Source: Hyalangium versicolor
Lineage (GTDB): Bacteria; Myxococcota; Myxococcia; Myxococcales; Myxococcaceae
Assembly (NCBI RefSeq): GCF_020103695.1
Contig: NZ_JAHXBF010000014.1
Span: 300,297 to 364,296, forward strand
DNA: 64,000 bases
Reading direction: 5' to 3'
Below the pieces are notes generated by a model. It was not told the DNA's origin and searched no databases. It worked only from the letters and a program-made list of their open reading frames with translations. Below are positions 61,065 to 63,899 of this stretch, piece after piece. The stretch's first letter is position 1. Every line of letters begins with the position of its first letter. The translations under genes and the position numbers were made by a program.

Positions 61065-63899
61065 GTGGGAATCACCCAACAGGAACAGGCACTAGCAGAA
61101 GCGGCTCAGCACGCAGCTGCCCACGACACTAGCCCTCAAGTTCGGCTCGTCGCGGGCCCAGGCACAGGGAAATCCTTTGCCATCGAGGAGCGAGTTTACT
61201 GGCTTCTCAAGAGCGAGACACCGGCAGAAGCCATTTTTGTAGTCTCATTTACGAGAGCAGCAGCTATCGAACTGGGTGCCCGCATCAGGCGCTATTGCGA
61301 GAAAAAGGGCCTAGACAACGCCTCAAAGGTCAGCGTGACAACGCTGCATTCTCTGGCACTCCGCGTCCTGAAGCGTGCTGGCCAACTGGAGCAGTACCCC
61401 AGCGACCCGGTAGTATTAGACAGGTGGGAATGCAAGAACATTTTTGACAAAGAGTTCTCCCACACGAGCAAATACAACCCCAGCCGGTGCGCAAAGATTC
61501 GAGAGGAACACGAAGCTTTCTGGAATACACGGACCTGGGGACCACCGAACTATATACCGCCCGATCCTCCAATTTCGGAGTCAGAGAGGTCAGCGTTTAA
61601 CACTTTCAACGGGCCTCGCACCCAAACATACTCGTGCGTGCTGCCAGGACAAATCATCTACCAATGCATAGAACAAGTAGCCGCAGGTACATTGGAGCCC
61701 GTCGGGTTGCTTGGGATTCAGCACCTCATAGTTGACGAATTCCAAGACCTCAACCCATGCGATCTCGAATTCGTCGACCATCTCGTTGAAGCTGGCGTCC
61801 CTACGTTCATCGCAGGCGACGACGACCAAAGCATATATTCTTTCCGCTATGCATCCCCCCAGGGTATCCAGACGTTTGATACCAAATACCCGTCAGCACG
61901 CACGCATCGCCTGGACGCGTGCTTTCGCTGTACGCCTTCAATTCTCGCCACCGCAACAACGGTACTGAGCCGCAATCTATCACCACAGAGAATTCCAAAA
62001 GCACTCCGCTCCCTATACGCAACCGCCACCCCTCCCGTGACTGGTTCAGTGCGCCTCTGGAGTTTCAGCAGTCACAAGCAAGAAGCCAACGCCATTGCCT
62101 CATCATGTCAAGCACTAGCCGATGCTGGCGTCTTGCATCGGGAAATCATCATCTTGCTGTCCAACCGTAAATTGCAAGAACAAGCGCTTACGGATGCATT
62201 TGATGCTGCTCAGATCCCATACTCGCCGCCTCGCGAGGACGGATACAGCGACAGCGACGAAGGGCGGTTTGCACTCTCGTGCTTGCGAATTGTCTGCAAT
62301 AAAAACGACTTCGTGGCATACCGCACATTGCTTGGTATTTTACCCCAAGTTGGCATCGCGACATGCAACAAGATCGCAGAGAATGTCCTTCTTCACAATC
62401 TAAGGTATCCAGACTTGTTTGAAGGAACCCTTCCAGCCAATGTTTTTGGTTCCCGCGAAACACAAGCACTCTCTCAAGCCTCTGCCATTCGATCAGTTAT
62501 CGGTCTATGGATACCGAGTGCCGCCTTGGAGGACCATTCAGATGAACTTGCTGATCTCTTACTGACGCACTTCGGCGAAACTGCACATGAGCGGTGGCTT
62601 GCTGCAATCGACATCTTGCCGAGTCAATCGACCCTCAAGGAAACCCTTACCTATCTCCAGGCCGAGACCGACGACCAACAGGCTTCCGTTCTTGACGATA
62701 TTGCTCTGCGCCTCGGTGCCGAACCTCCATCGGCAACTACCTCCTCATCACGCGTTCGCATGATGACCGCGCACGGAGCAAAAGGACTCGGCGCGCAAGT
62801 CGTCTTCGTTCCAGGGATGGAAGAGAGCATTTGGCCTGGCGAATCTCGCGCTCGCTACCCTGGGCTTGTGCAGGAAGCAGCTCGACTCCTCTATGTGGCC
62901 ATCACGCGAGCGCGTGGCGCGTGCATATTGAGTTTTGCCAAGAAACGCCTCGTCTTTGGAAGAATGAAACCACAAACCGCTTCACGATTTGCTACTCAGC
63001 TAAATGGGCGCTTTTTGCCTCGCCAAGAAGGACTAACTGCTACTGAGGCAACAGAAATTGAGGACTGCATCAGTGCTCTCCAGTTGCAACCACCGCAGGC
63101 TGCGCCTGCCGTTGCTCAAAATCCGAAGCCTCCGAACGCTGTGCCTACCTCTGCAGGGAAGACCAATCTCGCTAAGGCTTCCCCCCCCTCCTTGATCAGT
63201 ATTGCATCCACTGACACGCCTAAGCAGGCCTCCTCAATGAATCTCAAACCCCAAATACCAGATCAATCGATCTTGACAGACGATCTGCGAAGCCAGATTC
63301 GCAACAGGCAGGTTCTCTGCATTATTGGGGCGGGAGTATCAATCGCCGCTACAGGCGGCAACCCTGTCGCATCATGGCTTGGCCTGCTGCACCACGGGCT
63401 CAGGTACTGTATGCAGGTAGTCCAGCCCACCCCGCCGCCACAATGGCAGCAGAATGTCTACAACGACATCGAGACGGGGCGCGAGACTGGCGATACGCTT
63501 CTTTTGCTCAGCGCAGCCGAAAAGATTAGCAGCAAGCTTGGTGCTCCTAATGGCGGCGAGTATGCAAACTGGCTTGAGTTGGCAATGGGCAGTCTAAAGG
63601 CAAATTCCCAGTCTCTTATACGTGCCATTCTTGCCCTCGGTGTTCCAGTTGCGACGACAAATTACGATGGCTTGTTCGAAGAGGTCTCAGAGCTCCCTGC
63701 AATTAGCCCACGCGACACTCGAGATATCGAGCGAGTTTTCCGAGGCCAGCAAGCCGGCGTTGTCCATCTCCATGGCTGGTGGCGACACGCCGAAACGGTT
63801 GTACTCGGAATTCGCTCTTACGACCAAGTTCTCGCGAACGCGCAGGGGCAGGCACTGTTGCGTGCACTTGCGTCAATGAAAGGAGCCGCGCAGAAATAA
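61065..63899 (+). CDS. UvrD-like superfamily-1 helicase fused to C-terminal SIR2-like (SIR2_2/DHS-like) domain; candidate defence protein
   Basis: Helicase motifs [10 protein letters not shown] (I), IVDEFQDLN (II), [21 protein letters not shown] (V), [11 protein letters not shown] (VI). Low-complexity linker aa 640-720. C-terminal [16 protein letters not shown]...[10 protein letters not shown]...VVHLHGWW matches the SIR2_2 Rossmann signature. Confidence 0.75.

Follow-up and report, generated by a model that had tools for sequence, protein, structure and literature searches.

A helicase-SIR2 fusion gene of Hyalangium versicolor truncated by an ISAzo13-family element, and its place in a widespread helicase family with interchangeable partners

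Several described bacterial defense systems couple an NTPase to an effector that hydrolyzes nicotinamide adenine dinucleotide (NAD+), or use a helicase to sense DNA. In SIR2-HerA (Nezha), an ATP-driven DNA motor is coupled to a SIR2 NADase. DSR1 and DSR2 are single-gene SIR2_2 NADases, the SIR2-STAND or NLR-like proteins of the Avs5 type join an NTPase switch to a SIR2 effector, and ThsA of Thoeris shares the SIR2_2 fold with human FAM118B. GajB, the helicase of Gabija, senses DNA termini and hydrolyzes (deoxy)nucleoside triphosphates (PMC10952713). Here, we have analyzed a stretch of 64,000 nucleotides (nt) from the myxobacterium Hyalangium versicolor (contig NZ_JAHXBF010000014.1, positions 300,297 to 364,296; hereafter the window). 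Near its end, one gene encodes a UvrD-like helicase of superfamily 1 (SF1) fused to a C-terminal SIR2_2 module, which an earlier note on this DNA had proposed as a candidate anti-phage gene. We consider it reasonably probable that the gene represents a single-gene conflict module, probably directed against phages or other mobile genetic elements, in which the helicase would be the nucleic acid-sensing ATPase and the SIR2_2 module the NAD+-hydrolyzing effector, and that this module is inactivated in H. versicolor.

The best PADLOC matches of the gene are the GajB models of Gabija (6.7e-46), and the recognition of DNA termini by GajB is the kind of sensing that we propose for the helicase-SIR2 protein (PMC10952713). 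This likeness lies at the level of the superfamily, with PcrA and UvrD scoring as well or better (1.4e-59). Unlike in Gabija, the effector is a covalently fused SIR2, the helicase falls in a distinct clade with its own motifs, and no GajA gene (OLD/TOPRIM) is found beside it: in the window its flanks are an IS21 remnant and the end of an ISAzo13 element, and the neighbors at the homologous loci L001 and L002 include no such gene. The resemblance to Gabija and Hachiman drawn in the earlier note therefore holds by analogy but does not extend to a GajA partner, here or at homologous loci. The same observations bear on the idea that the gene is an orphan or degenerate Gabija, that is, a GajB whose GajA was lost through the activity of insertion sequences (IS). 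Such an origin would fit the GajB matches and the IS debris directly upstream of the gene. However, the intact fused homologue at L002 is solitary, with a 743-amino-acid (aa) Mrr-type nuclease gene nearby and no OLD/TOPRIM neighbor, GajA is not among the recurring families in 277 neighbors of family members (132 downstream, 145 upstream), and the gene carries family signature motifs (see below) that are absent from 80 generic UvrD loci. We regard a Gabija origin as extremely improbable.

The other systems differ in the motor, in the order of the domains or in the signal. HerA is a hexameric FtsK/HerA ATPase encoded by a separate gene and assembled in a 12:6 complex, whereas here the motor is an SF1 enzyme resembling UvrD/PcrA and lies in the same chain as the SIR2. 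The SIR2 of DSR2 is a good structural match to the module studied here (template modeling [TM] score of ~0.65), but DSR1 and DSR2 carry their SIR2 at the N terminus, ahead of a large nonenzymatic sensor that binds phage proteins, and not C-terminal to an ATPase helicase. The SIR2-STAND proteins contain the closest relatives of the module (47-55% identity); their domain order is reversed, and Pfam identifies neither a STAND domain (NB-ARC/NACHT) nor a repeat sensor domain in the window protein. ThsA and FAM118B share the seven-stranded sheet and the conserved Asn and His of the SIR2_2 fold, oligomerization-dependent activity being a property of theirs. Unlike Thoeris, the window protein has no SLOG/STALD or Macro ligand domain, there is no ThsB TIR gene nearby, and the activation signal would presumably be DNA-dependent rather than a small molecule. 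Finally, one EAD8-bearing member of the helicase family, found in an EAD8/bDLD1 operon, recalls the adaptor-linked NTP-dependent conflict systems (Kaur, Burroughs, Iyer, Aravind 2020/2021). Myxobacteria and other multicellular bacteria often carry such systems (PMC7159879). The window gene differs in being a direct fusion with no adaptor. In the searches made of these papers, no fusion of a UvrD-type helicase to SIR2 came up, and PMC7159879 gave no match to "UvrD" or "SIR2."

The open reading frame (ORF) of the gene (Table 1) starts with a GTG codon, a few bases after a GGAGGG ribosome-binding site, and its 944-aa product is identical to WP_224366701.1, named "UvrD-helicase domain-containing protein." Pfam recognizes UvrD-helicase (1.3e-38), UvrD_C (8.5e-26), AAA_19 (2.1e-14) and SIR2_2 (1.5e-6; 28.8 bits against a cut-off of 24.5), and no further domain types. 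The earlier note had read a complete SF1 motif set followed, after a Pro/Ala/Ser-rich linker, by a SIR2_2-type domain. Both parts are borne out by these profiles, and all SF1 motifs can be read and sit on invariant columns of the helicase-family alignment. The linker is unconserved. Among solved helicases, the nearest to the window protein are E. coli UvrD and PcrA. The gene is nevertheless not a housekeeping UvrD, PcrA or Rep, because it scores far under the NCBIfam equivalog cut-offs (202 bits against 911 for PcrA and 187 against 1144 for UvrD). No meaningful repeats, promoter or terminator signals were found around it.

The combination of these two domains is seldom found. When 1.84 billion cluster representatives were searched in full with HMMER, only two, P0003 (993 aa) and P0004 (Corallococcus sp. 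AS-1-12), matched both the helicase and the SIR2 module. Four helicase-SIR2 sequences are known: the IS-disrupted one of H. versicolor, that of Corallococcus sp. AS-1-12 and two from Logan assemblies. The homologue P0002 (994 aa) is 73% identical to the window protein, whose linker is 24 aa longer. The Corallococcus ORF runs without a stop to the edge of its contig, and its annotated length of 785 aa is therefore a contig-end artifact and not a true truncation. We found no helicase-SIR2, UvrD-SIR2 or TIR-helicase system in PADLOC v2 or in the literature searched (many subscription papers lie outside it), in agreement with the earlier note, which was aware of no named system with such a chain. 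To judge from these searches, the helicase-SIR2 proteins are a very rare, unnamed branch of a helicase family of defense islands.

The SIR2 module was characterized with an alignment of 42 modules, numbered from residues 702-994 of P0002 (293 residues). The motifs GAGxS, TTNYD and HxHG are invariant, and the conserved blocks are VGAGVS...ASWxGLL, TTNYD, HLHG, LGIRSY and LLFVGFGxGLxDPNF. An AlphaFold2 model of the intact P0002 module (mean predicted local distance difference test score of 89.2, predicted TM score of 0.87) has strands at residues 25-29, 137-139, 154-156, 174-176, 215-219, 248-253 and 264-270. Its best Foldseek matches are FAM118B (TM 0.70), the ThsA proteins of B. cereus and S. 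equi, KomC and DSR2. In sequence, the intact module matches human FAM118B end to end (7.5e-14) and B. cereus ThsA (1.4e-10), and it is the bacterial relative nearest in sequence to FAM118B among solved structures. There is no dedicated PADLOC model for this module; the PADLOC similarities of the SIR2 part are weak and confined to it, namely to SIR2 domains of the LmuA, ThsA (0.0035) and Dsr1 (0.017, ~100 aa) types. The nearest sequence relatives, 35-55% identical, are free-standing proteins of ~280 aa or N-terminal modules of proteins of 450-1400 aa, whose other domains are NB-ARC, NACHT, nSTAND or AAA_16 with TPR/HEAT repeats, or TIR_2, NUDIX or AbiTii. The 47-55% identities are to the N-terminal modules of P0330, P0334, P0353, P0366 and P0380 (NB-ARC/NACHT with TPR/HEAT). 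With such relatives, the module is a shuffled effector of the kind found in NLR-like immune proteins. A separate case among the homologues is P0239 of Synechococcus sp. PCC 7336 (265 aa), whose similarity ends after "...HAQTMQMEI," nearly at the same place as in the window copy, and which may be a frameshifted or decayed gene.

The intact homologues contain the complete seven-stranded core, including the C-terminal GxGxxDPxF segment, and the window copy does not. GAGVS, TTNYD and HLHG are present as the earlier note described them, but the domain that it took as whole is cut by an IS. The match to the SIR2_2 profile spans only positions 3-81 of 141, with 8 residues left before the stop; the matches of intact relatives extend to positions 119-136. 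After "...ALASMK," P0002, P0003 and P0004 run on with "TLLFIGFGSGLDDPNF..." for 79 more residues, where the window protein has "GAAQK" and then a stop. The DNA homology of the window gene to L002 and L001 stops at nt 63880. Beyond it, what had been taken for a downstream neighbor cut by the window end is the minus-strand end of an ISAzo13-family element, which interrupts the helicase-SIR2 gene. The minus-strand product of 63904-64000 matches positions 280-308 of 308 of DDE_Tnp_ISAZ013 (E value of 9e-6, 25.4 bits); the same C-terminal residues match annotated ISAzo13-family transposases, only the C terminus of the transposase falling inside the window. A terminal repeat presumably accounts for the ~22 nt that separate the breakpoint from the transposase stop.

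The window SIR2 ends at module residue 214 of 293. The segment that is gone comprises three of the seven core beta-strands (215-219, 248-253 and 264-270), two helices, and the LLFVGFGxGLxDPNF block with everything after it, including the nearly invariant G220, G222, D227, P228 and F230. Residues H206 and D255 of FAM118B are likely NAD-binding or catalytic residues (PMC12700824). The equivalent of D255, the second D of "GLDD" by alignment and offset count, is in the lost segment, and the counterparts of the catalytic residues, Asn in TTNYD and His in HLHG, are kept. Even so, a Rossmann-type domain that lacks three of its seven strands can hardly be expected to fold or bind NAD+. Because the IS has removed its last ~79 residues, the H. 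versicolor copy is probably dead as an NADase. It is very improbable that the window copy still works as an intact helicase-SIR2 defense gene, as its annotation by NCBI as an ordinary protein and the two retained catalytic residues could suggest, since residues present in 3 of 3 homologues are missing from it, conserved strands and the GxGxxDPxF motif among them, and the sequence switches to IS DNA at 63881/2. With its helicase half intact, the gene product in effect amounts to a helicase without an effector, like most members of the family (672 aa). More speculatively, selection against a toxic effector may lie behind the insertion.

This family is large. The window helicase (its first ~670 residues) is 50-56% identical to many proteins of near-constant length (~672 aa) across many phyla, and ~100 representatives of clusters made at 50% identity match it at 39% identity or more. 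The family signature is YxCVLPG placed exactly 35 residues before DExQDLNP. At the DNA level, the corresponding pattern occurs once in the window, in all ten family loci (L001-L010) and in 0 of 80 generic UvrD/Rep loci, a comparison set outside the family (L011-L090, 24-31% identity) taken from an alignment-based scan of genome contigs. The pattern has at least 120 matches in metagenome contigs, and it revealed no family members in the viral contigs of IMG/VR. A C-terminal extension is found in 0 of 120 metagenomic loci, the longest reaching 495 aa past the motif, compared with 805 in the fusions.

Some members carry additional domains, and these are diverse. Eight cluster representatives (P0249, P0250, P0255, P0261, P0266, P0268, P0293 and P0315; 813-842 aa, mutually homologous) have an N-terminal TIR_2 fusion. 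Others have an N-terminal DUF4062 (P0289) or trypsin-like peptidase (Trypsin_2; P0252), a C-terminal metallophosphoesterase (P0026), an EAD8 adaptor inserted in the helicase (P0032), or the C-terminal SIR2 module (P0003 and P0004). DUF4062 was recently reported as a TIR-like NADase (Swarozyc), and EAD8 is an adaptor that recruits effectors (PMC7159879). The TIR-helicase fusion is commoner than the SIR2 fusion, and no description of it was found in the literature searched. A 1067-aa helicase-metallophosphoesterase fusion is encoded at L009:8001-11204, in a Myxococcaceae metagenome-assembled genome, with a G+C content (GC) of 0.569 against 0.720 and a phage-type lysozyme gene upstream. At L211:3-10674, a same-strand operon encodes a HEAT-repeat protein, an EAD8-bearing helicase, a 654-aa EAD8 protein without PDB relative, and AAA_35-bDLD1-Trypsin_2, bDLD1 and FGE-sulfatase proteins. 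Its gene content suggests an adaptor-linked conflict system with a family helicase at its core. A conserved NTPase with interchangeable NADase, peptidase and adaptor partners is the mark of a conflict system and difficult to square with a plain repair or replication helicase.

The fusions also inform on the direction in which the two domains might work together. The roles could be reversed, with the helicase acting as effector by unwinding or stripping the DNA of the invader or by stalling its replication, and with the SIR2 as a regulatory module that handles NAD(H) or ADP-ribose. Such a module could, e.g., deacylate or ADP-ribosylate the helicase or proteins bound to DNA. Most family members indeed have no effector at all, and the sirtuin superfamily includes deacylases and ADP-ribosyltransferases (PMC12700824). 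Yet the module groups in sequence and fold with the SIR2_2 immune NADases and not with the deacylase sirtuins, whose Zn module is absent from it. Furthermore, because TIR and DUF4062 NADases occupy the same position in the family, NAD+ destruction could be their shared output. We therefore find reversed roles unlikely and keep to the helicase as sensor and the SIR2 as effector.

What surrounds the family genes points in two directions. A search for a conserved partner, in which 977 ORFs of family loci were grouped into 680 BLAST clusters, found that only the helicase itself recurs. Profile scans found 119 different Pfam families in the 132 downstream neighbors and 147 in the 145 upstream neighbors. 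Among the strong matches of these neighbors are many defense genes: SPARTA TIR-APAZ (twice, 2e-113), SIR2-APAZ, a split DSR1-like pair, MkoA of Mokosh (twice), BrxL and PglZ of BREX (twice each), a type I restriction enzyme, Mrr, AbiEi/AbiEii, an RT-DUF3800 protein of the DRT type and a cytosine methylase. Integrases are also found among the neighbors, and some family members lie inside integrative or conjugative elements.

Alternatively, the family could serve integrative and conjugative elements as a helicase for their replication, transfer or repair, its SIR2 and TIR fusions then acting in element biology or competition between elements rather than in the defense of the host against phages. 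The gene of P0006 lies between ParB/IstB-like genes and an F-type type IV secretion system cluster in an integrase-bearing element, that of P0047 shares its element with genes for an integrase, ArdC, a methyltransferase and a single-stranded DNA-binding protein (SSB), and the high conservation, the constant length and the absence of copies on viral contigs fit this role too. On the other side, repeated NADase, peptidase and EAD8 fusions and the EAD8/bDLD1 operon are hallmarks of conflict systems and not of replication helicases, and no conserved relaxase or replication neighbor was found among the family neighbors. An element helicase strikes us as a rather unlikely account of the family.

Some of these loci deserve separate mention. 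At L003:571-18019 and in L004, a 672-aa family helicase is part of an integrative conjugative element with an integrase, an S24 repressor, a 784-aa ParB_N protein and an IstB-like ATPase, followed by TraL/E/K/B/V/C. At L005:10175-14112 (also in L006-L008), the stop of a gene for a SIR2_2 protein of 339-343 aa overlaps the start of the next gene, whose 969-aa product matches PADLOC Dsr1 (positions 478-1214 of 1227, 1.3e-36). The element around this split pair also contains an integrase gene, AbiEi/AbiEii, ArdC, a methyltransferase and an SSB. We considered L005 as a "split" helicase and SIR2 system and rejected it, its SIR2 having no BLASTP similarity to the fused module. Because the next ORF matches Dsr1, the pair is a DSR1-like system merely beside the helicase. 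The SIR2 of L202 and the two TIR neighbors are SIR2-APAZ and TIR-APAZ proteins associated with prokaryotic Argonautes.

How would a helicase-SIR2 protein act? UvrD-type helicases load on 3' tails and nicks. This, together with the analogy to GajB, leads us to propose DNA ends or replication intermediates as the trigger. The helicase would load on invader DNA at free ends, single-stranded tails or replication intermediates, and ATP-driven loading or translocation could gather several molecules on one DNA. Such clustering would then turn on the SIR2 NADase, with NAD+ depletion and abortive infection as the outcome. That several helicases on one DNA might activate SIR2 is suggested by the requirement of immune sirtuins for oligomerization: the activity of ThsA, Avs5 and FAM118B needs the formation of filaments or oligomers (PMC12700824). 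We infer the DNA trigger, the activation mechanism, the NADase activity and the defense phenotype from such comparisons.

Swappable partners, defense-rich neighborhoods and a SIR2 module in common with NLR-like proteins favor, by comparison, a role of the family in conflict or defense. In this sense the anti-phage role proposed by the earlier note is partly supported, for the family but not for the window copy, which is IS-truncated in the SIR2 Rossmann core. Several points weigh against a sensor-effector module. The bulk of the family, including all 120 metagenomic loci, has neither a fused effector nor a conserved partner, and the role of the helicase may be one for which no effector is required. 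Conservation of ~50% identity across phyla is unusually high for a defense gene, and members in the backbone of integrative or conjugative elements also fit a role in element replication or transfer. The counts of neighbors stand without a formal background control, and for every family member our interpretation rests on comparison. As for the truncation, it may have arisen by deletion or rearrangement at a pre-existing IS end instead of simple insertion, and the gene is truncated either way.

The composition of the gene indicates that it is foreign. As the earlier note had seen, it forms a low-GC segment, with 54.5% against 67.5% for positions 1-60000 of the window and 500-nt windows of 0.52-0.56. 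The helicase-SIR2 gene is low in GC in both myxobacteria (0.53-0.55 against 0.68-0.69 for the remaining sequence), and in myxobacteria the range for the gene is 53-57% against 69-72% in its flanks. Since its GC is so far below that of the flanks, the gene can be regarded as horizontally acquired. The IS debris and the toxin/immunity pair reported to adjoin it are also there (Table 1), in the form of an IstB_IS21 fragment and an AHH nuclease/Imm11 pair identified by Pfam. This pair has an intermediate GC of 0.60-0.63 and is probably a separate acquired cassette for interbacterial competition, part of the context and not of the helicase gene. No tRNAs were found in the window.

Table 1. Positions of the helicase-SIR2 gene, its parts and its flanking features in the window
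Feature	Position	Strand	Evidence or remark
Whole ORF, 944 aa: UvrD-like helicase, linker, truncated SIR2_2, then 5 IS-derived codons and stop	61065..63899	+	WP_224366701.1
SF1/UvrD-type helicase core, aa 1-~670	61065..63074	+	All SF1 motifs; YSCVLPG 35 aa before DEFQDLNP
Pro/Ala/Ser-rich linker, aa ~671-730	63075..63254	+	Sequence read directly
SIR2_2 (immune-type sirtuin) module, N-terminal ~73% only, last residue K939	63255..63881	+	GAGVS kept; TTNYD 63654-63668; HLHG 63765-63776
Codons GAAQK and stop, from terminal sequence of the inserted IS, nonhomologous to the SIR2 gene	63882..63899	+	
End of ISAzo13-family IS: ~22 nt of terminal sequence, then last 31 DDE transposase codons	63882..64000	-	Coding 64000->63907, stop 63906->63904
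Remnant of IS21-family IstB gene, left of the helicase gene	60580..60756	+	IstB_IS21 profile positions 147-212/238, 1.3e-8
AHH-nuclease polymorphic toxin, 449 aa	58014-59363	+	Pfam 9e-15
Imm11 immunity gene	59379-59942	+	Pfam 8.7e-12

Further features of the window are of less relevance here. A 211-aa ORF (60338-60973, plus strand) overlaps the IstB_IS21 remnant in another frame, in mosaic IS debris with a local GC of up to 0.65. A reading of this ORF as an IS66-type TnpA at its start is unsupported, with no match in Pfam and none by tblastn in plasmids. More distant from the gene, tandem paralogous CheB-type genes (54049-55098 and 55243-56289, plus strand; receiver and CheB methylesterase, 1.6e-48 and 7.6e-47) are followed by a Ser/Thr protein kinase gene (56353-57813). 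Antisense to the CheB genes, a 1048-aa ORF (53002-56148, minus strand) of low complexity and rich in Arg/Gly is almost certainly an artifact of high GC.

For H. versicolor, these results call for caution, since the protein annotated as intact comes from an IS-truncated gene and should not be counted as a functional defense system. More generally, helicase-SIR2 appears, from its domains, to be a new architecture of a known kind, that of an NTPase sensor with an NADase effector. We tentatively suggest, as a possibility short of an expectation, that the ~672-aa helicases with YxCVLPG...DExQDLNP are the core of an undescribed and widespread defense family, in which helicase loading would be the immune signal and NAD+ destruction, through fused TIR, DUF4062 or SIR2 domains or through effectors recruited by EAD8, the preferred output. 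The helicase-SIR2 protein would then be the first sirtuin NADase gated by an SF1 helicase, through DNA-templated clustering. If the family works as proposed, the SIR2 systems gated by HerA, STAND, Argonaute or signals would be joined by a route to NAD+ depletion gated by an SF1 helicase. The family would moreover offer a natural series in which one helicase core is found with TIR, DUF4062, SIR2, peptidase and adaptor outputs, next to an effector-less majority, and this series could show how a DNA motor passes the signal of infection to an effector.

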